Origin: Escherichia coli
GTDB lineage: Bacteria > Pseudomonadota > Gammaproteobacteria > Enterobacterales > Enterobacteriaceae
Assembly (NCBI RefSeq): GCF_011045215.1
Contig: NZ_CP049201.1
Strand: one strand, 5' to 3'
DNA: 64,000 nt
A program made the translations under genes and the position numbers. This document shows, one piece after another, positions 16,838 to 28,752 of the stretch (within the stretch, counting starts at the first letter, position 1; each line of letters begins with the position of its first letter). Under the pieces are notes generated by a model that was given only the letters and a program-made list of their open reading frames with translations, did no database searches and was not told where the DNA came from.

Positions 16838-17165
16838 ACGTAACGCCCGTCAGCGTCTGAAAGCGGTGCTGCTCACAGGCGGTATCCTGCTGGCATTTAT
16901 GGTGGTGGCGCTGTTCATTGCGGATGTGGCCATTCGTCATCCTGAAGGGACAGCTACGTTCAGTTCGTGGATGCGGGCTCACCGTTCTGGCTGGCTGCTC
17001 TGGCGTCTGTGCATTTATATCCTGCTGGGCTGGGGTATCTGGCGTATCGTGCATGCGCCGGGGTTCCGGGCGGAATACCGCCAGCCGTTGATGCGTATCT
17101 GTTGCGCCAGTGTGGCGTTTATTCTGGTCTGTGAATATGCGCTGCTGAAGGCGCAGGGAGGCTGA
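16824..17165 (+). CDS. ICE membrane protein (113 aa)
   Basis: ATG overlaps the upstream stop; multiple hydrophobic helices. Confidence 0.5.
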   Translation: MKMNKRNARQRLKAVLLTGGILLAFMVVALFIADVAIRHPEGTATFSSWMRAHRSGWLLWRLCIYILLGWGIWRIVHAPGFRAEYRQPLMRICCASVAFILVCEYALLKAQGG

Positions 17166-18754
17166 TGATGACAACAAACAGCTATCTTGAATATTTTCTG
17201 ACCCTGCTGGGCTGGCTGATTAATAACGGCCTGTGGGATGTGCTGCTGGGGACCGGGTTGTTTGCACTGCCGCTGGTATTTAAGGTGATTGGGATTTGGC
17301 TGCGGGTCAGGGAAGAAGGGGAGGATGAGGGGAATAAGGGACTTCTCTCGCTGCCCCGTATTGAACATGCACTGTACATGGGTTTTTTTGTGATTATCAG
17401 TTGCTGCGTGCCGCTGGTTAATGTCAGTCTGGGGACTATTGAGTATGACGGCAGTCGTGCAAAGCAGTGCGGAACATGGACGCCGAAGGCACCGGATAAG
17501 ACCGGGTATGCAGGTGTGATTTCCAGTATGGACGGTAAAACGGCGCAGATCCCGCTGTGGTGGCTGATGGTGCACAAACTTTCAAAAGGGGTGACTCAGG
17601 CCGCAGTGGCATCCATTCCCTGTACACCGGATATGCGACAGATGCGTTTTGAGGTTCAGCATACCCGGATCAACAATAAGGCACTGATTGAAGAGCTGCA
17701 GGATTTTACCAATGACTGCTACTCACTGGCGCTGTACAGCTGGAAGCACCAGGATCAGGGAATGACAACGGATAAAAATACGCTGCGGGATATTGAGTGG
17801 ATTGGCAGCAGGACATTTCAGTCGCGTTATTACAATGAACTGCAGTCGAAGATGCCGAGAAGTGCGTTTCCGTGGAATGCATCCCGTGACAGTGGACGCC
17901 CAAACACCGGTCGGGGTGGTTACCCGACCTGTAATGAGTGGTGGAGTGAGGCGGATGTCGGGCTGAAAAGTCGGGTGATGAAGCAGGCTGACCCCGGTAT
18001 GTGGCTGCGTCTGTCAGCAACAATGAAAATGATCGGGAATACAGGCAAGGAGTATGAAGAAGCGGTGATACGCCGTCTGGTCAGTCCGGTGAATATGACA
18101 GTGTCACATGGTGGCAGAGCCTATGCCGGTTATGGCGGGAATGCGGATTTGTCGCTGGATAATGCGGTGACCCGCGTGTTCTCAACGGGGGGCGTGGCGC
18201 TGGGGAGTCTGGCGGCGTTTCCGGCCCTGGATGCGATGCGACAGGCATTACCCATGGTACAGGGGATCCTGTTGATGGCTATTTACGTGATGTTACCGCT
18301 GATTCTGGCGTTTGCGGCGTACGAGATAAAGACGGTGATTACACTGACGTTTGTGATTTTTGCGACTAATTTCCTGACGTTCTGGTGGGAGCTGGCACGA
18401 TGGCTGGATTCATGGATGTTTACAGCGCTGTACAGTTCGGGAACACACAGCCGTTTCAATATGGCAGGGTTTCAGAATACCTCAGATGACCTGATTATGA
18501 ATCTGGTGATGGGCAGTATGTTCCTGATTCTGCCAGCGGTCTGGATGGGGGCATTATCTTGGGCCGGGGTGTATATTGGAGGAGCGATGACTCAAAGTAT
18601 GGGAGATGGCACCAGACAAGCTCAGGCATCAGGAGGCAGTGCTGTTAATATGTTGCAGGATGCTGGGTTGCGGGGGATGTCTGGGGGCACGTCAGCAGGC
18701 TCAACAGGCCAAACAGTAGGCTCGGTAGGTCAAAAATTGAATAAGCAAAAATAA
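17165..18754 (+). CDS. TraG N-terminal-domain-like polytopic membrane protein (mating-pair stabilisation-like)
   Basis: Start overlaps previous stop; 529 aa with several TM segments and a Gly/Ser-rich C-terminus; last gene of the T4SS block. Confidence 0.6.
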   Translation: MMTTNSYLEYFLTLLGWLINNGLWDVLLGTGLFALPLVFKVIGIWLRVREEGEDEGNKGLLSLPRIEHALYMGFFVIISCCVPLVNVSLGTIEYDGSRAKQCGTWTPKAPDKTGYAGVISSMDGKTAQIPLWWLMVHKLSKGVTQAAVASIPCTPDMRQMRFEVQHTRINNKALIEELQDFTNDCYSLALYSWKHQDQGMTTDKNTLRDIEWIGSRTFQSRYYNELQSKMPRSAFPWNASRDSGRPNTGRGGYPTCNEWWSEADVGLKSRVMKQADPGMWLRLSATMKMIGNTGKEYEEAVIRRLVSPVNMTVSHGGRAYAGYGGNADLSLDNAVTRVFSTGGVALGSLAAFPALDAMRQALPMVQGILLMAIYVMLPLILAFAAYEIKTVITLTFVIFATNFLTFWWELARWLDSWMFTALYSSGTHSRFNMAGFQNTSDDLIMNLVMGSMFLILPAVWMGALSWAGVYIGGAMTQSMGDGTRQAQASGGSAVNMLQDAGLRGMSGGTSAGSTGQTVGSVGQKLNKQK

Positions 18755-20772: not shown

Positions 20773-20917
20773 ATAATTAATTTGTATCTACAGAATATTA
20801 ATGCTCAGGCTGGTTAACCCCGGCCTTTTTATTTTATATACAGACGTTCCTGTGAGACTATTGACATATAAAAGCCCGTCTTGCTAATCTTTTCCCGCTT
20901 TAATGTCGCTGTATGCG

Positions 20918-21102
20918 ACCATCCAAATCCCCAGTAGTCTGAGAGGGGAGCCTTCGGGCGGCTACCAGCCAATGCTTTAACGATCTGAGAGAAGCGCCTT
21001 CGGGTGATCGTAATGTTCTCGTAGCCTGGAAGAGAACGCCTTACGTGGCGGTACATCCGTTTAACCTCTGGGAACGGATATCACGGAACCGTGATTGAGG
21101 TC
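20918..21102 (+). repeat. Copy A of a ~185-bp structured direct repeat (four predicted hairpins, two with CUUCGG loops)
   Basis: Seen directly: about 88% identical to 23232..23416; contains GAGCC-UUCG-GGC and GCGCC-UUCG-GGUG hairpins plus a 7-bp stem ATCCGTT/AACGGAT. Confidence 0.8.
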
Positions 21103-21517: not shown

Positions 21518-21762
21518 CGACCGTTCTTCTTGCAGAATTTTATTGTTTTTTAAGGAGTTTTATGTAGTGAGATGCCGAACCGGCGATACCACTTATTAGG
21601 GGTGGTATCGGGGGCGACCTGGAAACAGGTACAGCGAATGCTGCAGTCGGTGTGCAACACCGGTTTGTTACCCCTCAATACCTAAACAGTCTGCGCTACC
21701 CTGGCGCTCAGGCACTCATTACCCGAAGGATCGCAACGCTTAACCGTGTCGCCAGGGAGAAT

Positions 21763-21850: not shown

Positions 21851-22753
21851 GTGTCCAGACGTGAAAAATTACTGAAACAGGATTTGGTTGCTCATATCCG
21901 GAAAGACCGGGGGAGTTTCAAGAAGCTGAGTGACTATTCCCGGATCATGCACCGGTTTGCGGAAAGACTGGCTAAACTGAATATACAGATCAGTTCTGCT
22001 GCGCAGGTAAAAGTGCGGCATATTGAATTATATATGAACAGCAGGAGTGATGTTTCAAAGCGAACCAGAGAAAATGAAATGTCTGCAATACGGGTTATGT
22101 TACGTCAGGCCGGTAAACATAAAATGGCAGATCCTGAACATCCCCGTCTCAGCAATAAGGCGTTAGGTATTTCAGGAGGAAGCCGTAAAGGGACAAAGAA
22201 ATTAATTACGGATGAGCGTTTCCGGGAAATTCTTCAGCGCGTGGAAGCAAAAGATAAAGGGGTGGCAGCTGTTGTTAAACTGTCACGTTATCTCGGTCTG
22301 AGAAATGAAGAAGCTGTCCAGTCGGCCAAATCGTTACGGACGTGGAAAAAAGCGTTACAACGGGGAGATGAAAAAATAAGGGTGATTTTTGGTACGAAAG
22401 GGGGACGGGAAAGAATGACGACGGTTGTTGACCGGGATAAAGTTCTTGATGCTGTTAATTACGCACTCAAATATGCCAGTGAGCATAATGAACGTCTGAT
22501 AGACAGAGATAATCTTAAGTCGGCAATGGATTATTATCTTAATACGTTACGACGTTATGGAGAACTGAAAGGCGGAGATGAAACCGCACACAGTTTTCGG
22601 TACAGTTACGCCGCAAGTGCCATGAAATATCATATTATGAATGGTTACAGTTATAAGGAGGCACTTGCACTGACATCAATTGATCTTGGTCATGGTGATG
22701 GCAGAGGTCGATATATTGAACAGGTTTATTGTCAGTTATTAGGCTATGAGTAA
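21851..22753 (+). CDS. Tyrosine site-specific recombinase (phage-integrase family), 300 aa
   Basis: GTG start after RBS GAGGAGG; C-terminal catalytic-like motifs AHSFRYSYAA (H-x-x-R), LGHGDGRG and RYIEQVY (candidate nucleophilic Tyr). Confidence 0.75.
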   Translation: MSRREKLLKQDLVAHIRKDRGSFKKLSDYSRIMHRFAERLAKLNIQISSAAQVKVRHIELYMNSRSDVSKRTRENEMSAIRVMLRQAGKHKMADPEHPRLSNKALGISGGSRKGTKKLITDERFREILQRVEAKDKGVAAVVKLSRYLGLRNEEAVQSAKSLRTWKKALQRGDEKIRVIFGTKGGRERMTTVVDRDKVLDAVNYALKYASEHNERLIDRDNLKSAMDYYLNTLRRYGELKGGDETAHSFRYSYAASAMKYHIMNGYSYKEALALTSIDLGHGDGRGRYIEQVYCQLLGYE

Positions 22754-23109: not shown

Positions 23110-23155
23110 CTTGACATCCATCTTTTGTGCCTTAAAAATATACAGGCTAACTTTG

Positions 23156-23416
23156 TTACCTTCGGGTGACCATCCAATGTTTCGGTAGTCTGAGAGAAAC
23201 GCCTTCGGGTGACTACAGTTATCTTCGGATAACCATCCAAATCCCCGGTAGTCTGAGAGGGGAGCCTTCGGGCGACTACCAGCCAATGCTTTGACGATCT
23301 GAGAAAAGCGCCTTCGGGTGATCGTAATGTCTCCGTAGCCTGAAAGGGGACGCCTTAGAGGGTGGTACATCCGTTTAACCTCTGGAAACGGATATCACGG
23401 AACAGTGATCGAGGTC
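23156..23416 (+). repeat. Copy B of the ~185-bp structured direct repeat (23232..23416) plus an extra partial unit (23156..23231)
   Basis: Seen directly: aligns with 20918..21102 over its full length with scattered substitutions; the upstream partial duplication repeats the CCATCCAA...GGTAGTCTGAGAG...GCCTTCGGGTG unit. Confidence 0.8.
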
Positions 23417-23488
23417 TTTTATACTTAACCCGTGCGGGAGATACATTCCCGTATGGTGATTGTATCTCCGGTTTTACTGTGGAGGTAC

Positions 23489-23839
23489 ATGATGCCGTTA
23501 TCTTCTTTTGTTCAGGAGTTGCTGGCTCCCTGGTATTCTTTTCGTTCTGTCTGTTGGCGCATTTTTGTGGCTTTTCCGCAACTGCGGGCAACTGTATTGC
23601 GTACCCGCTGGTATCTGTCGTTGACAGGACAACGAGAATATTGCCCCAATGTCTGGTTTGATGGCAGTGTGTACCATTGTGCTGTGTTGGTGCGGGAGTG
23701 TCATGATGCCCGTAAATCAGTACCAAAGGTGCAGTACTATATCCCTGGATACTTTTCTTCATATCGTTCAGCATACCGGACAGCCAGGAGAACGGCGATT
23801 GCGCTGGCGACGATAAAAGTGTCGTGCAGGGCTGTCTGA
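23489..23839 (+). CDS. Hypothetical protein (116 aa)
   Basis: RBS GGAGG upstream of two adjacent ATGs; first gene of a co-oriented block. Confidence 0.4.
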   Translation: MMPLSSFVQELLAPWYSFRSVCWRIFVAFPQLRATVLRTRWYLSLTGQREYCPNVWFDGSVYHCAVLVRECHDARKSVPKVQYYIPGYFSSYRSAYRTARRTAIALATIKVSCRAV

Positions 23840-23948
23840 TTCATTATTACCGAACCGGAGCATCAGCGTTGTTGTGATGCCTCCATCCCCTGACGGGTGT
23901 TTTTGTCCGTCGGGGCGAAGACTCCCGTTTCTTTTTACAGGAGTCTTT

Positions 23949-24323
23949 ATGTCAACGTTTATTTTGTGCCCTGAACCGGGCATCTCTTCTTTTTTCCGGC
24001 GAATGACGGCTCAGTTGCGGGTGTTTTTTTCACGCAATAACCTGTCATATTACAGTCGCTGGTACACCAATCCGGCCGGCAATCTGAGTGTGCGGGTCTG
24101 TATGTTTCGTCGTGGCGGTGTCTGGACACCCTGTCTGTATTACCGGCAGGGAATGCACCGCAACGCGTACACAGGCTGGTATCAGCCGTTACCGCGTGAG
24201 GTCATTTGTCTGAACCGGTTTACCGGGCGGATATCCCGTCGCAGGACCTGGCATGCTGCCTGCCGTATGGCGGAACAACTGACCACCCTGCGTTACCGGT
24301 TTGGTCTGCAGGCTGATGGATGA
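23949..24323 (+). CDS. Hypothetical basic, Arg/Tyr/Trp-rich protein (124 aa)
   Basis: RBS AGGAG upstream of ATG 23949; start adjusted from the ORF track. Confidence 0.45.
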   Translation: MSTFILCPEPGISSFFRRMTAQLRVFFSRNNLSYYSRWYTNPAGNLSVRVCMFRRGGVWTPCLYYRQGMHRNAYTGWYQPLPREVICLNRFTGRISRRRTWHAACRMAEQLTTLRYRFGLQADG

Positions 24324-24427
24324 AAGCGTCGTACAGCCCTGCTGATTTATCATTTATTACCCTGTCGGGAACACGCTTCCCGCAGGGGAGATGTGTTCCC
24401 GTGATTTTTTGTCTCTGAGGTGAACAC

Positions 24428-24907
24428 ATGAATAGTCTGTTAATACTCCTTTACGTTGTTGTATGGCGTGTCTGCACCATTCTTCGGGTAATCACACCAG
24501 TGTCGGCTGTCCGTGCGTGGTGTGAGTATCAACTGGAAGGTATGACGATACTTCGTGATGCGTACAGCTCGCTGGCAAAGGCGGCTGGAATGCAGAATGA
24601 AGCATTTGAATATCTTAAAGGTATTGCACGTCATCTGGGCTACGAAAGCGGTGGTGACCAGCTGAAATCAGGACTTTTCCGGCCGTTTCTGTGGCATATA
24701 CGTGCGAAAGGCCACAGGCTGGGGGCTGTCATGGAGATGGAGGTATGGAAGACATGGAAGAACGGCTGTAACGATGTCTGCAATCCATGGAAGGATATCT
24801 ACAATCCATGGGAGCGTGGATGGAACGATGGCTGGACTGAATGTCTGAATCAACGTGTAGCCGGCATCCTGAAGCAGGCCTGTGTTGACTTTTCCGACGC
24901 AGACTGA
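24428..24907 (+). CDS. Hypothetical protein (159 aa) with hydrophobic N-terminus and Trp-rich C-terminus
   Basis: ORF in the co-oriented block; RBS GAGG upstream. Confidence 0.5.
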   Translation: MNSLLILLYVVVWRVCTILRVITPVSAVRAWCEYQLEGMTILRDAYSSLAKAAGMQNEAFEYLKGIARHLGYESGGDQLKSGLFRPFLWHIRAKGHRLGAVMEMEVWKTWKNGCNDVCNPWKDIYNPWERGWNDGWTECLNQRVAGILKQACVDFSDAD

Positions 24908-25012
24908 AGGGTTTTTCTTTTACTTACTGCACCGTGTGTCTGCGCCGGTGCTTTCCCTGGCGGGAGTTTTGTTCCGTCAGGGACAGGACTTCCTGAACAG
25001 ACGGAGGTCATT

Positions 25013-25390
25013 ATGTATTCACCCTTACTTGTTCATTATTCAGCACTGCAGACGCAGTCTGCTCTGCTGGCGCATATCAGCCAGCTGGAAGGTGAGCTGA
25101 TGCGGTTACGCGCCTGGCAACGGCTGGGGATTACTCCGGAGCCGGATGATGAGACGGAGCCTTCACTGGTATACGTGCAACTGTGGGATACCGGTGAGGC
25201 GCTGGGCTGGCTGCTGTATGACCTGGAGCAGGAGAACATTCCTGCTCCGGGAGTTCAGGCCCGTCAGGCGCTTGACAGTCTGATGGCGCTGGGGCGTGAA
25301 ATTAATCATGAAATCTGGACTGACAGTATCAGTACCGGAAAGCTGACGGCCGGGGCGGATGCCTGTTTTGCCCGCCACGACATGATGTAG
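25013..25390 (+). CDS. Hypothetical protein (125 aa)
   Basis: RBS GGAGG 6-8 nt upstream; same orientation as neighbours. Confidence 0.5.
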   Translation: MYSPLLVHYSALQTQSALLAHISQLEGELMRLRAWQRLGITPEPDDETEPSLVYVQLWDTGEALGWLLYDLEQENIPAPGVQARQALDSLMALGREINHEIWTDSISTGKLTAGADACFARHDMM

Positions 25391-25477
25391 TTAATAACCT
25401 GACCCTGACGGGGCGTGCTCTCCGTCAGGAAGGCATTCCCCGTAGTTTATTTTTAATCTGACCATGAGGAATGTTCC

Positions 25478-26107
25478 ATGTCTGAATTATCTTCACGTCC
25501 GGCCCGTGAGCCGGTGGTATATACCCTTGAGCAGGTTGCCACAATACCGGAAAAGCAGTGGCATGCTTTTGTTCTGGCCGTAACTGAAACCTTCTGGCAG
25601 TTGCCGGAGGCGTTACGGCCGCAGAATGCGTATTTCGGCTCCCTGACCCGGGCATCTGAGTTGTTTCCGGTAACGGATACACTGGCGTTTTACAGCCGGT
25701 CTGCAGACGGGTTGTGGTCGGTGAATGTCACCATTGAACGGGAACATCGTCAGAACATTCTGGTGCTTAAGGAGCTGAATTTCGGACGCCAGCCGGGGGA
25801 TTTCTTTGCCCGTACGGTGTTTGTGCTGTTGCACAATCTGTGTCCGGATTGTTTCCACATTCATTCCACTGCCGGTGGTGCCAGCTGGTCACTGCCGCTG
25901 AAATGGATAAAACGGTTCCTGGGGCATGAGAATTTTTCTGCTCCGGAGTCTGTATTAACCACCCCGGTAAGGGGAGATGCGTTTGACTGTTTACTGCTGC
26001 AGTTTCTGTCCGGTCAGGGGCGACAGTTATCCCCGGATGACTGGTCAGCGCTGGAAGAGGCTGAACATCAGCTTTACTGGCTGCGGGCACTTGCCGGTGG
26101 ACACTGA
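25478..26107 (+). CDS. Hypothetical protein (209 aa)
   Basis: RBS GAGGAATG upstream; codon usage consistent with neighbours. Confidence 0.55.
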   Translation: MSELSSRPAREPVVYTLEQVATIPEKQWHAFVLAVTETFWQLPEALRPQNAYFGSLTRASELFPVTDTLAFYSRSADGLWSVNVTIEREHRQNILVLKELNFGRQPGDFFARTVFVLLHNLCPDCFHIHSTAGGASWSLPLKWIKRFLGHENFSAPESVLTTPVRGDAFDCLLLQFLSGQGRQLSPDDWSALEEAEHQLYWLRALAGGH

Positions 26108-26229
26108 CAGAACACCGTTGTTTCTTTTCATTTACCCGGAATAACGCCATCGCGTATTCCGTCATTCATATAACCCGGCAGGGAGATATCCCTGTGGGGA
26201 GAGTCCCTGCGTTATTCAGGAGAATTGTT

Positions 26230-26613
26230 ATGGGACTCGATATTTACTTTATGGCTCGTGATAACCATCAGAATGGTGCCGTTGTGGAAACACAGGAACA
26301 TCAGGAAGTGGGGGCTTTCCGTAAGGTGATGCCGCTTCTGACATGGTTCCGTAACCATACTGGTGCTTCGGATGAGCAGCATACTTTCCCTGTAACACGC
26401 CGGTCACTGGCTGCATTATTGCGTGACCTCAGTATGCTGATGCCGGGAAACTGCCACAGCCTGTTTCCTTATGTCAGAAACTCGCGTTTACGGGGTGAAG
26501 ACTATGCTGATGATTACTGGTATGACGTGAATGACGTAAAAGCGTGGGTCAGCGATACGCTGAAGACGTTTGATTTTGAGCGTCGTTCACTGGTGATGCT
26601 GGCGTTGTGGTAA
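26230..26613 (+). CDS. Hypothetical protein (127 aa)
   Basis: RBS AGGAG 7 nt before ATG 26230; start adjusted from the ORF track. Confidence 0.5.
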   Translation: MGLDIYFMARDNHQNGAVVETQEHQEVGAFRKVMPLLTWFRNHTGASDEQHTFPVTRRSLAALLRDLSMLMPGNCHSLFPYVRNSRLRGEDYADDYWYDVNDVKAWVSDTLKTFDFERRSLVMLALW

Positions 26614-26742
26614 GTCTGAGACCGCATAATATGAACCGCTGGCGGAGGGGGTAACCTGACCGCCATTCATCCCGTGAGGGCATTGTTCCTCACGGGACAG
26701 TGCCCTCTTTTTACATCTGATACAAAAAGAGGAGCGTAAACC

Positions 26743-27690
26743 ATGTCTGAATGGTGCCAGAATCGTTTTGAAATTACCGGTAAGTCAGTCTGTCTGGATG
26801 TGCTGACGCAGTGGATTGAAGGATGTGAGATACCGCGTTACCGCCATGCCATACAGCAGAGTATACAGCTGTTTCTGGCCGGTTGTGCAGGGCTGGTGAA
26901 ACCCACCCGGACGACGCAGTATCCGCCATATCCGGCGCTGGTTCGTCACGGTACTGGGATGTCATCTCCGGCTAACCAGGCATTTGAACAGTGGCTGGGG
27001 CTGCTGGTAAAAGATGCCGTACTGGATGAAGAGACGATAAAGACCATTGACCGCCTTTATCACCAGACATGTATTGGCGCAGTCCGCTGGGGGAATCTGC
27101 CGGATAATGCCCGGGAGATAATCACCGCGTTAATGCGTTGTCAGTATTCTGACTGGTTTGGCCTGGTCGGACTGAGCGAACACATTGATGCCGGAGCCTG
27201 CTGGAGCCGGCTGTCGGATTACCCGGAGCAGGCGCAGCCCTGTGACATGCTGATGGTCATACCCTCCCGTCTGGCCACAGAGCTGAATGGTTCAGGTGGA
27301 CTGCTGCAGGGTATTTCCACCACGACCAGCCTTTACAGCCGGATATACGGTGTGGAGTGGCCATCAGGTCACAATGTCCGCTGGGTGCGTGATGAGATGA
27401 GCAGTCTGGTGCTTCTGACGGATACGCCCTGGTATCCGCCTTCAGGTGAGCTGGTTGGTGAAATCTCGAAGGTGTTCGACTGTGAGATACGGCACTGGTA
27501 CAGCGAACCTGTCCGGGGCATACAGGGTTACAACTGTTATGACGGTGGTGAACATACGGACAGTGACCCGCAGGCTGAATGGCCGGGGAGGGAAACACTT
27601 CCTCAGCCCCGGCTGTATCTGGTGGAGGAGCGCGCTGAAGAACAGACAGAAGCCGCACCTTTACCGGTTCCGCTGGCTTCAGGCCAGTAA
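26743..27690 (+). CDS. Hypothetical protein (315 aa), N-terminus MSEWCQNRFEITG
   Basis: RBS AAGAGGAG upstream. The N-terminus loosely recalls a family of island/plasmid proteins (possibly DUF1281); uncertain without a search. Confidence 0.55.
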   Translation: MSEWCQNRFEITGKSVCLDVLTQWIEGCEIPRYRHAIQQSIQLFLAGCAGLVKPTRTTQYPPYPALVRHGTGMSSPANQAFEQWLGLLVKDAVLDEETIKTIDRLYHQTCIGAVRWGNLPDNAREIITALMRCQYSDWFGLVGLSEHIDAGACWSRLSDYPEQAQPCDMLMVIPSRLATELNGSGGLLQGISTTTSLYSRIYGVEWPSGHNVRWVRDEMSSLVLLTDTPWYPPSGELVGEISKVFDCEIRHWYSEPVRGIQGYNCYDGGEHTDSDPQAEWPGRETLPQPRLYLVEERAEEQTEAAPLPVPLASGQ

Positions 27691-27811
27691 TTAACCTCAG
27701 GGTGTCACATTCGTGGCACCCGTTTTTTCCTGTCATCTTTCATTTCAGCCCGAAGGGGAACACCTGTTCCTCCCCGGGGCCATGTGTTCCCTGTTTTTTA
27801 CGGAGAAACAC

Positions 27812-28504
27812 ATGGCCACCTTTATCGACCATCAGAAGGCCTTCATTTCGCTGTTTAATCAGACCGCCCGTTATCACAAACGCCATAAGGTGTTTGAAGA
27901 CTTTGTCAGCTGCAGTGTGATTGCCCTGGAGAACCGGCTTCAGTTCAGTGAGGCACGGGAGCAGAAGTACCTGCGAATCGTCAGTGGTTATGAAAAGCAG
28001 GATGTTATCAACATGGCGCATTTGCTTGCTCATGTCATTGAGGGACTGGAGCAGGGATTCTGTGACTTTCTGGGCAGCGTGTTCATGCAACTGGAGCTGG
28101 GGGATAAATACCGGGGCCAGTTTTTCACGCCCTGGAGTGTGGCCAGAATGATGGCACAGATGCAGCTGGGGAATGTGACGACGCTGTTTGAGAACAAGCC
28201 CTTTATCACGCTCCGTGAACCGGCCTGTGGTGCCGGCAGTATGATACTGGCTATGGCTGACACCCTGAACCATTCGGGATATCCGGCATATCGCAGGATG
28301 TGGGTGTCGGCAACGGATATTGACCCGCTGGCAGCCGGCATGGCGTATATACAACTGTCGCTGTGTGGTGTGGCCGGTGAAGTGGTGATTGGCAACTCAT
28401 TGTGTAATGAGCGACGCCGGGTACTGCTGACGCCCGGGCATTACCTCGGGAACTGGTCATATCGTCTGCGTCATTCTCAGGAACAGGTCACAGCTGATGC
28501 CTGA
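27812..28504 (+). CDS. HsdM-like N6-adenine methyltransferase fragment (SAM-binding region only, 230 aa)
   Basis: Motifs GQFFTPWSVARMM (resembles the type I/gamma MTase F/Y-TP motif) and EPACGAGSMILA (motif I-like) are present, but no NPPF/Y catalytic motif; the ORF ends soon after. Confidence 0.5.
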   Translation: MATFIDHQKAFISLFNQTARYHKRHKVFEDFVSCSVIALENRLQFSEAREQKYLRIVSGYEKQDVINMAHLLAHVIEGLEQGFCDFLGSVFMQLELGDKYRGQFFTPWSVARMMAQMQLGNVTTLFENKPFITLREPACGAGSMILAMADTLNHSGYPAYRRMWVSATDIDPLAAGMAYIQLSLCGVAGEVVIGNSLCNERRRVLLTPGHYLGNWSYRLRHSQEQVTADA

Positions 28505-28752
28505 TTTTTTATCACTACGCCAGTCTTCGGGCTGGCGTTATTATATTTGCGTTGCTTGTTATTGGGGGCGGTTTCTATGTACGTCAGGAGCATTTTTAAA
28601 CCGATGTGGATAAGTAACTGATTGATTCATCGTGATCAGCTATCGCTTCTAAGTTATTGCTTTTCTCTTATCGCATTTAGGTTATCTCATGTCCCTAAAG
28701 GTCTGCCAAACACCGTATAGCGTGGGAGTACACCCTACCGCGATAACGTAAC

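Follow-up and report, generated by a model that had tools for sequence, protein, structure and literature searches.

An eight-gene block with structured RNA leaders in an Escherichia coli integrative conjugative element, a candidate establishment and anti-restriction module

Results and Discussion

We analyzed a block of eight co-oriented genes (g1–g8) in a 64,000-nucleotide stretch of E. coli DNA, hereafter the window. Comparison with related elements shows a conserved backbone in which an anti-restriction gene of close relatives is missing from its slot. That the block is a conserved, co-regulated establishment and anti-restriction module of an integrative conjugative element (ICE) has, in our judgment, about an even chance of being correct, and an anti-defence role is what we infer for it. 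For none of the proteins encoded by the block in the window is a biochemical activity demonstrated or confidently predicted, and ArdC, the sole known anti-restriction gene of the module, is absent from the window.

Layout of the block

The array of plus-strand ORFs originally described at 23489-28504 is present with accurate coordinates (Table 1), and its G+C content is 48–55%. The original prediction counted seven genes with short spacers between them. Eight genes are annotated in RefSeq for E. coli copies of 97% identity and are called on contigs with an identical g7 protein, and the spacers are structured and 87–129 nt long, not short operon spacers. Among E. coli variants, pN/pS ranged from 0.06 to 0.52, with g7 the most constrained (0.06), g1 at 0.12 and g3 the least constrained (0.52). 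Because the ratio is below 1 in all eight ORFs and other genera carry diverged homologues of six, these are genuine genes and not chance ORFs. A single sigma-70-like promoter match was found near the block; it is a candidate by consensus alone, and promoter-like sites showed no enrichment over shuffles.

Table 1. Coordinates of the genes, leaders and other features of the block in the window.
Feature	Position	Strand	Description
Candidate promoter of whole block	23111..23139	+	TTGACA-17-AAAAAT, upstream of STAXI copy 2
STAXI RNA motif (RF01728) copy 2	23154..23419	+	5' leader of block, abuts g1 leader
g1 leader	23430..23488	+	A 23430-23456, T 23437-23469, B 23461-23489; dG -16.7/-18.4/-12.5 kcal/mol
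g1	23489-23839	+	116 aa, very basic, pI 9.9
g2 leader	23888..23948	+	three-hairpin; A -17.2, T -20.9, B -14.1
g2	23949-24323	+	124 aa, pI 11.0
g3 leader	24360..24427	+	three-hairpin; A -18.8, T -25.0, B -13.2
g3	24428-24907	+	159 aa, Trp-rich, short internal repeats (repeat family D4)
g4 spacer/leader	24908..25012	+	strong hairpins, terminator-like element degenerate; z -4.4
g4	25013-25390	+	125 aa, acidic, pI 4.5
g5 spacer/leader	25391..25477	+	hairpin A and SD-sequestering B present, U-run element weak; z -4.2
g5	25478-26107	+	209 aa
g6	26230-26613	+	127 aa
Empty anti-restriction slot	26614..26623	+	junctions identical to those bounding ArdC or KlcA/ArdB in relatives
g7 leader	26671..26742	+	three-hairpin; core sequence almost invariant over 20 loci
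g7	26743-27690	+	315 aa, DUF1281 and DUF1281_C (Api92 family), acidic, pI 4.8
Terminator-like hairpin	27700..27721	+	canonical, with T-run, directly 3' of g7 stop codon
g8 leader	27749..27811	+	three-hairpin; A -17.6, T -19.1, B -11.9; SD and ATG inside B
g8	27812-28504	+	230 aa, 'half' N6-adenine MTase homologue
Terminator-like hairpin	28517..28538	+	3' of g8; unit end, variable cargo begins downstream

Host element and synteny

The block belongs to an ICE of the SPI-7/PAPI-1/ICEPan/SGI-4 type (MOBH relaxase), which in E. coli is located at tRNA-Phe. In KE41, a 97%-identical copy, the annotation lists TIGR037xx ICE proteins, TraG and TraD, together with a TraI-domain protein and with an integrase beside tRNA-Phe. 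The related plasmids L014 and L015 are typed as relaxase MOBH in PLSDB, and in the window tRNA-Phe lies at 43423-43498 with E. coli flank.

The neighbourhood was compared in 21 loci from about 10 genera, collected by tblastn and clustering. This comparison upheld the assignment of the block to a conjugative element and revealed an operon-like co-conservation across elements. The genes always stood in the same order, and the ancestral order is STAXI RNA, small genes (g1, g2, g4 and g5 with variable partners), ArdC, the DUF1281 gene (g7), the half-methyltransferase (g8) and then UvrD-TraI-Int. The numbers of copies were 26 for g5, 19 for g7, 18 for ArdC, 17 for g2, 15 for g8, 14 for g4 and 10 for g1. 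Among other Enterobacterales, ICEs and plasmids have the g1, g2, g4, g5, g7 and g8 families in this order, at 30–80% identity. In pEB102 and several chromosomal loci, UvrD-TraI directly follows g8; cargo is inserted between g8 and UvrD, a spacer in which no conserved DNA was found. Judged from this synteny, the block is conserved ICE backbone and not cargo. Its description as a single multi-gene "system" is doubtful, as g3 and g6 are restricted to particular lineages, some elements carry g5 in duplicate, and ArdC can be dispensed with.

An empty anti-restriction slot

The expectation that the block occupies a position typical of anti-restriction genes was confirmed in the relatives, which carry ArdC in 18 of the 21 loci and KlcA/ArdB (PF03230) in others. 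In elements 96–98% identical to that of the window, the same two junctions enclose either ArdC with its leader (L002) or KlcA/ArdB (L004). On the evidence of these junctions, the window copy has lost ArdC, and the slot holds ArdC, KlcA or nothing among close relatives.

Leading regions of conjugative elements, MOBH included, are enriched in anti-defence genes and orphan methyltransferases (PMC11541004). Like the leading-region islands (ssb-psiB-ardA-klcA-orphan MTase; Samuel et al. 2024, PMC11541004), the block consists of co-oriented small, mostly uncharacterised genes with a partly mosaic content, adjoins the relaxase/oriT end, and belongs to a module that in relatives includes the anti-restriction gene ArdC or KlcA and that contains a methyltransferase-family gene, g8, a member of whose family also lies in an IncF leading region. 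In contrast to these islands, the block has no PsiB or SSB, and no Frpo-like single-strand promoter was found at it; ssb lies 30–40 kb away behind its own STAXI copy, the gene order is strongly conserved, and the genes carry family-specific three-hairpin leaders, which none of the F-type and other plasmid loci examined possesses. Should the template strand be the one transferred, as it is in F, the leading region would comprise the block and the cargo; for this element the term is a geometric analogy only.

The half-methyltransferase g8

The last gene had been called a truncated methyltransferase-like gene, of which the likeness holds and the truncation does not. The g8 protein has a helical N-domain followed by β1–β4 with the SAM-binding motifs, lacks the C-terminal half, and covers only positions 23-119 of 311 in the Pfam N6_Mtase model. 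However, its homologues keep a length of 220–235 aa in 917 clusters down to 55% identity, and the match to PHROG 5696 (250 positions) extends from end to end. To judge from this constancy, g8 represents a conserved short family and is not a decayed or broken gene. The predicted structure (pLDDT 93.5) contains four strands only, and the nearest folds are HsdM (3LKD), 2F8L, PacII M and M.BseCI. With the gamma-class N6-adenine methyltransferases and Type I HsdM (PF02384), g8 shares the helical N-domain, motif X (GQFFTP), motif I (EPACGAG), the acidic residue after β2 and strands β1–β4; GQFFTP, EPACGAG and D167 are conserved in its family. In contrast to these enzymes, g8 stops about 20 residues past β4, without β5–β7, and reads TPGHY where NPPY is expected, the family keeping TPxHY at the motif IV position instead of (D/N/S)PP(Y/F/W). 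It also lacks a target-recognition or HsdS-binding region and a partner R or S gene.

These features suggest that g8 would bind SAM without methylating DNA alone. It may be an HsdM-like decoy, a cofactor binder or a subunit that requires a partner; because TPxHY is conserved at the motif IV position, residual or partner-dependent catalysis is conceivable. Homologues were found on 2,211 plasmids, of which 1,513 are conjugative. One IncFIB/FII plasmid has its g8 homologue in the interval from psiA to oriT/traM, in the same orientation as ssb and psiB; this occurrence in an IncF leading region agrees with the earlier view that a methyltransferase-like gene fits an anti-restriction theme.

Structured RNA leaders

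The block is headed by a STAXI RNA motif, a tandem pseudoknot element. Matches scored 85.8 and 57.2 bits (gathering score 40.5), and a copy was found upstream of the block in 7 of 7 diverged loci tested. Copies of the motif (RF01728; Weinberg et al. 2010) that exceed the gathering score immediately precede the block and Integrase_1, and one also precedes ssb in the related KE41 element. These positions reproduce the published associations of STAXI with genes for Ssb, topoisomerase, antirestriction and integrase (PMC2864571).

The leaders of the individual genes have a different structure, which matched no Rfam family at E≤5. Relative to dinucleotide shuffles, each spacer folded with a z of -1.8 to -4.8 as DNA, and the mean z as RNA was -4.65 (30 spacers, six loci). 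Each complete leader can form three mutually exclusive hairpins, namely antiterminator-like (A), terminator-like (T) and SD-sequestering (B). Segment r3, an anti-SD sequence followed by a U-run, can pair either with r2, an upstream SD-mimic decoy, to give T, or with r4, the true SD/AUG, to give B, while r1 can lock the decoy r2 away in A. In the full-triple leaders, A and T share 8–15 paired nucleotides, T and B 5–10, and A and B 0–2. With a detector designed after the pattern had been seen, strong triples were found in 76 of 121 non-identical block leaders and in 0 of 1,210 shuffles. Within the window the detector matched only the leaders of g1, g2, g3, g7 and g8, those of g4, g5 and g6 being degenerate; over the 21 loci, there were 92 matches within blocks and none in the 703 kb outside. 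No three-hairpin leader was found in F-type plasmids or in the remainder of the ICE. The g7 leaders, when aligned, show compensatory changes in helix T, mainly from one clade, and no within-family covariation in hairpin A, which is invariant.

Attenuators and RBS-sequestering leaders include terminator/antiterminator switches and loop-to-RBS rearrangements of the ColIb-P9 repZ type. The block leaders resemble these systems in having mutually exclusive hairpins, one with a U-run and one over the SD/AUG, and a hairpin-loop sequence that competes for the anti-SD segment. They differ in that the analysis identified neither a leader peptide or ligand-binding aptamer nor an antisense RNA or binding protein, and in that a copy with its own gene-specific sequence "tag" stands before almost every cistron. 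The leaders would gate read-through and translation of every cistron in a common way; each could also be merely an intrinsic terminator with an RBS hairpin.

Alternative readings

A possible but rather unlikely alternative is that the block serves the life cycle of the ICE, its proteins regulating or processing excised or transferred DNA instead of acting in anti-defence. The roles would lie in transfer competence, replication, recombination with the adjacent Integrase_1 or ssDNA handling, and the structured leaders would tie expression to the activation state of the ICE in the donor. Such roles would suit a conserved backbone directly upstream of UvrD-TraI that is always preceded by a STAXI-EFASI-Integrase_1-STAXI unit; g1 and g2 are small and very basic, ArdC is annotated as an ssDNA-binding protein family, and g1–g7 match no defence or anti-defence model. 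However, two unrelated anti-restriction families, ArdC and KlcA/ArdB, hold the slot interchangeably, g8 homologues adjoin psiB/ssb in plasmid leading regions, and searches of g1–g6 detected no domain for DNA binding, replication or recombination.

The "defence system" half of the original prediction, in which the block would protect the host against phages with g8 as a modification-like component and the uncharacterised proteins as effectors, found no support, and we consider it very unlikely. PADLOC returned nothing for g1–g7 and, for g8, weak matches to R-M and MADS methyltransferase models that comprise the SAM-binding segment only, with E-values from 3e-6 upward. No catalytic motif or target-recognition domain is present in g8, and searches for nuclease, ATPase, helicase, protease and sensor domains found none. 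The surroundings do point to defence, the TraG-helicase interval being a defence hotspot in PAPI-1-type islands (PMC12629846) and CBASS lying immediately downstream in relatives, but defence systems occupy the variable downstream site, whereas the block is common to elements with differing cargo. A recombinase gene beside co-oriented small genes with imperfect palindromes between them also recalls an integron-like array, in which the upstream tyrosine recombinase (Integrase_1) would shuffle promoterless cassettes at the hairpin spacers, perhaps on single-stranded DNA during transfer. Gene content does differ among elements, with g5 duplicated and ArdC, KlcA or nothing between identical junctions. 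Yet one of these junctions coincides with the g6 stop codon and the other lies about 10 nt past the stop codon of the inserted gene, both outside the hairpins and with GTC microhomology only, the order is conserved over a large divergence, unlike that of integron arrays, and the spacers combine an expression-signal logic (U-run, SD pairing) with gene-specific tags. The recombinase moreover points in the same direction as the array, and attI/attC core sites were not seen. Of the readings considered, this is the most improbable.

In the reading that we favour over these alternatives, an establishment and anti-restriction module, the block would be transcribed as one unit from a promoter upstream of STAXI, and its proteins would work on ICE DNA as it enters or after its excision, at about the time of transfer. 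Where present, ArdC or KlcA would counter restriction.

The g7 protein and the small proteins

The absence of any recognisable motif, stated earlier for all genes except the last, was wrong for g7. Residues 3-281 align with PDB 2IJR (E 3e-117), the structure of Api92 from the YAPI island of Yersinia pseudotuberculosis, and g7 has both Pfam domains of that protein, DUF1281 and DUF1281_C. The solved structure is annotated "hypothetical protein", and a literature search on DUF1281 gave no function.

Homologues of g1 in Erwinia/Pantoea are 27–28% identical, and members of the g2 and g4 families share 24–32% and 18–33% identity, respectively. A comparison by hhalign (E 0.003, probability only 10%) suggests that g2 is possibly a distant paralogue of g1; both basic proteins would bind nucleic acid. 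The g3 gene is confined to the E. coli type of element, and g4 matches PHROG 22073, annotated as unknown function. The most widespread uncharacterised family is g5, often duplicated and with no match in Pfam, in PDB or by fold. In SGI-4-type ICEs, g5 is fused to a g6-like domain, and g6 is homologous to the C-terminal domain of this 334-aa protein, a fusion which suggests that g5 and g6 would form a complex. The g6 protein also matches PHROG 7971, and its full-length homologues (25–30% identity) were found on 324 plasmids, most of which are non-mobilizable and about 110 kb in size.

Gene content and element

The block consists of eight co-oriented genes, g1 to g8 (see the table). The original prediction had described seven tightly packed genes with short spacers. 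The ORF listing shows a run of co-oriented plus-strand ORFs from 23.4 to 28.5 kb of the window, and both the RefSeq annotation of 97%-identical E. coli chromosomal copies and gene calls on contigs encoding an identical g7 protein give eight genes rather than seven; the measured spacers are 87–129 nt long, and "short" was therefore also inaccurate. Across four E. coli variants, pN/pS ranged from 0.06 (g7) to 0.52 (g3), which indicates that all eight genes are under purifying selection. The lineage-specific g3 is the least constrained of the block genes; within it, three tandem 21-nt repeats (window 24767–24841) encode a Trp-rich motif (NPWKDIY / NPWERGW / NDGWTEC). The block was found at a query coverage of at least 80% in 59 of 5,426 complete E. 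coli genomes.

Coordinates of the block genes, their leaders and neighbouring features in the window
Feature	Coordinates	Strand	Size	Remark
TraG_N	17165-18754			flank of block
STAXI (RF01728), copy 1	20904-21057			Rfam
EFASI (RF02957)	21564-21721			Rfam
Integrase_1 (PF12835) gene	21851-22753			co-oriented with block
Sigma-70-like site	23111-23139
STAXI (RF01728), copy 2	23154-23419			Rfam
Leader of g1	23430-23488	+		equivalents in 21 loci
g1	23489-23839	+	116 aa
Leader of g2	23888-23948	+		equivalents in 21 loci
g2	23949-24323	+	124 aa
Leader of g3	24360-24427	+		equivalents in 21 loci
g3	24428-24907	+	159 aa
g4	25013-25390	+	125 aa
g5	25478-26107	+	209 aa
g6	26230-26613	+	127 aa
Leader of g7	26671-26742	+		equivalents in 21 loci
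g7	26743-27690	+	315 aa
Leader of g8	27749-27811	+		equivalents in 21 loci
g8	27812-28504	+	230 aa
UvrD-like helicase	39042-40622			flank of block
tRNA-Phe	43423-43498

The host is E. coli: to the right of tRNA-Phe, the chromosome matches the cutA-dsbD-dcuA-aspA region of E. coli at 99.9% identity. An integrase gene adjoins this tRNA gene. Judged by its genes, the element is an ICE of the SPI-7/PAPI-1/pKLC102 type, with an MPF_G T4SS and a MOBH relaxase. For the 97%-identical element of E. coli KE41, RefSeq lists TIGR03749/03751/03752/03756/03757, PFL_4703, an SPI-7-type DnaB and a TraI-domain protein, together with ParA, ParB, topoisomerase III, Ssb, TraD, TraG, a UvrD helicase and an integrase, and PLSDB types two related plasmids (L014 and L015) as MOBH. 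Relative to the window, KE41 carries an inversion between two IS1414 copies that spans Integrase_1 through the TIGR03757 gene, TraG included (L001:8021-19613). ICEs of this family move among enterobacteria with metal resistance (SGI-4), virulence determinants (SPI-7, YAPI, PAPI-1) and defence systems; to our knowledge, their establishment in a new host has hardly been studied.

A conserved backbone module with an exchangeable slot

The block is a conserved backbone module with an exchangeable anti-restriction slot. Its ORFs were compared by tblastn and single-linkage clustering with 16 loci of other Enterobacterales, retrieved by DUF1281 similarity, and with ICE-like plasmids. A single conserved order was obtained: TraG, p187, STAXI, EFASI, Integrase_1, STAXI, (g1), g2, (g4), g5, [g6/F7/F9/F13], ArdC, g7, (DUF5983), g8, [cargo or nothing], UvrD, TraI, Int. 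The original prediction had proposed conservation of the gene neighbourhood as a check, and the block families are indeed co-conserved in this one order across elements (21 loci). Over these loci, g5 is present in 26 copies (it is often duplicated), g7 in 19, ArdC in 18, g2 in 17, g8 in 15, g4 in 14 and g1 in 10; as genes of their own, g3 and g6 are confined to the E. coli type of element. In Erwinia/Pantoea-type elements (L015:9002-9313 and L024–L028), an additional DUF5983 gene lies between the DUF1281 gene and the half-methyltransferase gene; it overlaps the g7 stop by 4 nt, is translationally coupled and has no leader.

ArdC sits between g6 and g7 in UMNK88-type elements, a PF03230 (KlcA/ArdB) gene takes this position in two other E. 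coli variants, and in the window the slot is empty, holding neither. The breakpoints found by BLASTN are identical in all three states (window 26613-26616 on the left, 26623 on the right), and elements that differ in slot content are 96–98% identical on either side of it. Because ArdC occurs in nearly all diverged relatives (18 of the 21 related loci), the window copy is a deletion derivative. What fills the slot (window 26614-26623) is either ArdC with its own leader (L002:11207-12276), KlcA/ArdB without a leader (L004:9383-9871), or nothing.

UvrD-TraI comes straight after g8 on pEB102 of Erwinia billingiae and in several chromosomal ICEs, which places the block in the backbone and a cargo site downstream of g8. 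This g8-UvrD interval is an insertion site for cargo and defence genes: it holds, in the window, a gene for a 741-aa protein with AraC-type and EAL genes after it, sil/pco genes in SGI-4, and CBASS in UMNK88-type elements. In relatives with a CBASS operon (SMODS/DncV-like nucleotidyltransferase, ThiF, JAB and SAVED), it lies right after g8 (L002:14352-20001; L004 and L008:11959-16270). The larger interval from TraG_N to UvrD is the counterpart of "GI-Hotspot 2" in PAPI-1 islands (PMC12629846).

g8 is a conserved half-methyltransferase

The last gene encodes a conserved half-methyltransferase that also occurs in plasmid leading regions. Only model positions 23-119 of 311 of Pfam N6_Mtase (PF02384) are matched by g8. 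An alignment of 55 homologues showed conserved GQFFTP, EPACGAG, T-D-I-D, MAYIQLSL and GN(A/S)L segments; the SAM-binding motifs X, I and II are present, with Q101, F103, T104, P105 and D167 invariant and E134, P135, A136, G138 and D169 at least 90% conserved. The catalytic motif IV, (D/N/S)PP(Y/F/W), was not found anywhere in the protein. Instead, TPGHY (family consensus TPxHY) follows beta4, and the C-terminus lies about 20 residues beyond it. In the AlphaFold model (pLDDT 93.5, pTM 0.91), the N-domain is helical and there are just four beta strands, and neither a complete seven-stranded catalytic fold nor a target-recognition element was found in this model or by Pfam coverage. Foldseek searches with the model returned gamma-class N6A methyltransferases (2F8L, HsdM 3LKD, PacII M, M.BseCI, BsaXI and DrdV) at TM scores of at most 0.47. 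Judged by these motifs and the predicted fold, g8 probably binds SAM but is not likely to act as a DNA methyltransferase by itself.

The original prediction of a truncated methyltransferase-like gene was right in that g8 is shorter than methyltransferase enzymes; it does not reflect decay at this locus, as the homologues, which form 917 clusters, are mostly 220-235 aa long and PHROG 5696 is matched over its full length. A total of 2,211 plasmids carry homologues, and 1,513 of these plasmids are conjugative. On a Klebsiella IncFIB/FII plasmid the homologue is located in the leading region, between psiA and traM, and on other plasmids homologues adjoin radC, parB and H-NS genes. The leading-region protein YfjB/HerB was considered as an equivalent of g8 and rejected, being ParB-like and unrelated. 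Routine annotation presents this family, common as it is in plasmid leading regions, as an active "N-6 DNA methylase"; the recognition that this widely annotated protein, encoded both on ICEs and in the leading regions of plasmids, lacks the catalytic motif and is a conserved half-enzyme appears to be new.

Proteins g1 to g7

g7 contains both Pfam domains of the DUF1281/Api92 family, DUF1281 (PF06924) and DUF1281_C (PF18406), and its residues 3-281 align to PDB 2IJR, "hypothetical protein api92" (E 3e-117); a literature search found no function for g7 or DUF1281. PADLOC, NCBIfam and PHROGs gave no functional assignment for g1–g7, and over all eight proteins they returned only unnamed PHROGs (g4, g6, g7 and g8) and weak methyltransferase matches for g8. 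Pfam searches with the g2 and g5 family alignments gave no match, PDB sequence searches with g8, g5 and g2 gave nothing significant, and g5 had no Pfam, PDB or fold match. The g5 database matches amount to only 23 clusters, each named one from Enterobacterales. With pI values of 9.9 and 11.0, g1 and g2 are very basic; g4 and g7, at 4.5 and 4.8, are acidic. BLASTP gave no support for paralogy of g1 and g2, and a profile comparison was no more than suggestive (E 0.003, probability 10%).

In SGI-4-type elements, a protein of 330-334 aa joins a g5 domain to a C-terminal g6-like domain (L009:4974-5975, L014:5104-6105, L019:4253-5248 and L022:7044-8033). The g6 protein ends in ERRSLVMLALW and the 334-aa fusion in ERESVFLFAIW (BLASTP E 7e-4). 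The fusion points to joint action of g5 and g6. Full-length g6 homologues with 25-30% identity were found on 324 plasmids, most of which are non-mobilizable and have a size of about 110 kb; these may be phage-plasmids. The homologues (L032:4965-5375 and those on the approximately 324 plasmids) lie in arrays of small hypothetical genes, mostly on non-mobilizable E. coli and Klebsiella plasmids; L032 also has a metG gene. A relationship between g5 and g7 was rejected (hhalign E 0.16). P0143, a 184-aa metagenome (Logan) protein, seemed to link the two but was likewise rejected as a natural g5-DUF1281 fusion: it consists of the middle part of a g5 paralogue and the C-terminal half of DUF1281, and is most simply a deletion chimera inside one element.

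Three-hairpin leaders

Each block spacer folds far better than its shuffles, and so do the spacers of diverged relatives (mean z -4.65, 30 spacers). The folded stretch before a gene, which we call the leader, contains four segments. Segment r1 and its 3' partner form a GC-rich hairpin, A. Segment r2, the end of the 5' arm of A plus the loop, consists of GGGG and a gene-specific tag and mimics the SD region. Segment r3 complements the tag and continues with CCCC or CCUC, directly before a U-run, and r4 is the true SD with the same tag, adjoining the AUG. Pairing of r2 with r3 gives the terminator-like hairpin T, and pairing of r3 with r4 gives hairpin B, which covers the SD and the start codon. 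In leaders with the full triple, A and T have 8-15 paired nucleotides in common, T and B 5-10, and A and B 0-2. The A+B state is the predicted thermodynamic optimum.

A leader detector was set to require a run of at least 5 U in 7 after a T stem, dG(A)<=-12, dG(T)<=-15, dG(B)<=-8, and a T end at most 45 nt from an SD-bearing start. Devised after the pattern had been seen, it recovered 76 of 121 non-identical block leaders and none of 1,210 dinucleotide shuffles. On both strands of the 64-kb window it matched only at g1, g2, g3, g7 and g8, the g4, g5 and g6 leaders being degenerate there; over the 21 loci, all 92 matches fell inside blocks, and the 703 kb beyond the blocks gave none. F-type and other plasmids with g8 or g6 homologues gave no match either, nor did a 47-kb KE41 stretch containing the left half of that ICE (L033). 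Such a block-specific leader implies common control of the block genes. Terminator-like sites occur at about twice the expected number, 15 of 17 on the plus strand.

The core of the g7 leader is near-invariant across 20 loci with only 55-65% identity between their flanking proteins. Its helix T is 96.8% paired, with three pairs changed on both sides, and its covariation score was reached by none of 500 shuffles; the compensatory changes come mostly from one clade. Helix A is invariant, which makes the alignment uninformative for it. Alignment across genes with MAFFT/RNAalifold yielded helix T only in part, as the tags, which differ from gene to gene, keep the leaders from being aligned by sequence. 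Rfam 15 matched no leader of the window or of pEB102 at E<=5; its matches there were to STAXI or at chance level. The leaders resemble terminator/antiterminator attenuators in their mutually exclusive hairpins, one of them before a U-run, and in their conservation across homologous leaders.

Interpretation and alternatives

During transcription, hairpin A would fold first and hide the decoy r2, so that RNA polymerase could read through; r3 would then pair with the SD, giving the off state A+B. Opening of A by any agent, candidates being a protein such as the basic g1 or g2, ribosomes or temperature, would let r2 capture r3. This pairing would act as a terminator during transcription and would free the SD in the finished mRNA. 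We infer that the block is a co-regulated establishment and anti-restriction module expressed around the time of transfer. A stronger version is possible, if somewhat doubtful: that the block is a regulon in which every gene has its own copy of a cis-acting RNA switch of a hitherto undescribed class, and that the three mutually exclusive hairpins of this switch couple read-through to translation and give transfer-coupled ("zygotic") expression of new establishment and anti-restriction proteins, including a SAM-binding, catalytically dead HsdM-like protein present on more than 2,000 plasmids.

In geometry only, the block resembles the leading region of F: all eight genes are co-oriented toward UvrD-TraI as the F leading genes are toward oriT/traM. 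They point to the relaxase end, with the relaxase beyond them on the same strand. Conserved DNA that could be a candidate oriT was not found in the g8-UvrD spacer or the spacer upstream of UvrD, and a literature search found no oriT positions for this ICE family. MOBH elements are among those with leading-region enrichment of anti-defence genes (PMC11541004). Unlike in leading-region islands, no Frpo-type single-strand promoter and no long promoter-bearing hairpin were found in the block; its spacers contain short GC-rich hairpins with terminator/RBS logic, and Rfam yields only STAXI.

An ICE life-cycle or DNA-processing module without any anti-defence role is an unlikely reading of the same genes. 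A host defence system is very improbable: PADLOC-DB 2.0 gave no full-length component match, g1–g7 had no family match at all, and the best PADLOC matches of g8 (E 3e-6 upward) cover about 50-120 residues around the SAM-binding motifs of methyltransferase models that run to about 1,270 positions. Hardly credible is an integron-like cassette array, which would have attC sites and a divergent IntI-type integrase; the recombinase here is a co-oriented Integrase_1, and we rejected the cassette idea because the indel junctions lie outside the hairpins.

This kind of region, the anti-defence and establishment region of conjugative elements, is already known, as are the element family, STAXI, DUF1281 and ArdC. 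The definition of a conserved module with its slot, the g5-g6 fusion and the three-hairpin leader at each gene appear to be new. The module brings together six widespread protein families without assigned function and one precise anti-restriction slot. Should these proteins act against restriction or other defences, they would represent new anti-defence families; if they do not, they mark an unexplored step of ICE biology. The leader provides an experimental handle on the timing and mode of expression, as well as a sequence signature for finding the module.

STAXI, EFASI and the recombinase

The Integrase_1 gene lies between two STAXI elements, with EFASI between the first STAXI and the gene. 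The repeats of the "repeat-flanked recombinase" in the original prediction are these STAXI copies, a 185-nt direct repeat with 91% identity. The order STAXI-EFASI-Integrase_1-STAXI-block was present in all seven diverged loci tested, ICEs and plasmids (L002, L009, L015, L018, L022, L024 and L027). The single sigma-70-like site near the block is just upstream of the second STAXI copy, which suggests one transcript of STAXI followed by eight leader-gene units. A role for ops/RfaH was considered and rejected: the STAXI loop GGTAGTCTG resembles the ops element, but GACGATC can stand in its place, with the pseudoknot partner changing along with it, which indicates that the resemblance is coincidental. 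The KE41 ICE carries a third STAXI between topB and the STY4534/ssb genes (L033:32374-32524). Published gene associations of STAXI are with Ssb, topoisomerase, antirestriction and integrase genes (PMC2864571), and the copies at the block, at Integrase_1 and at ssb explain these associations.
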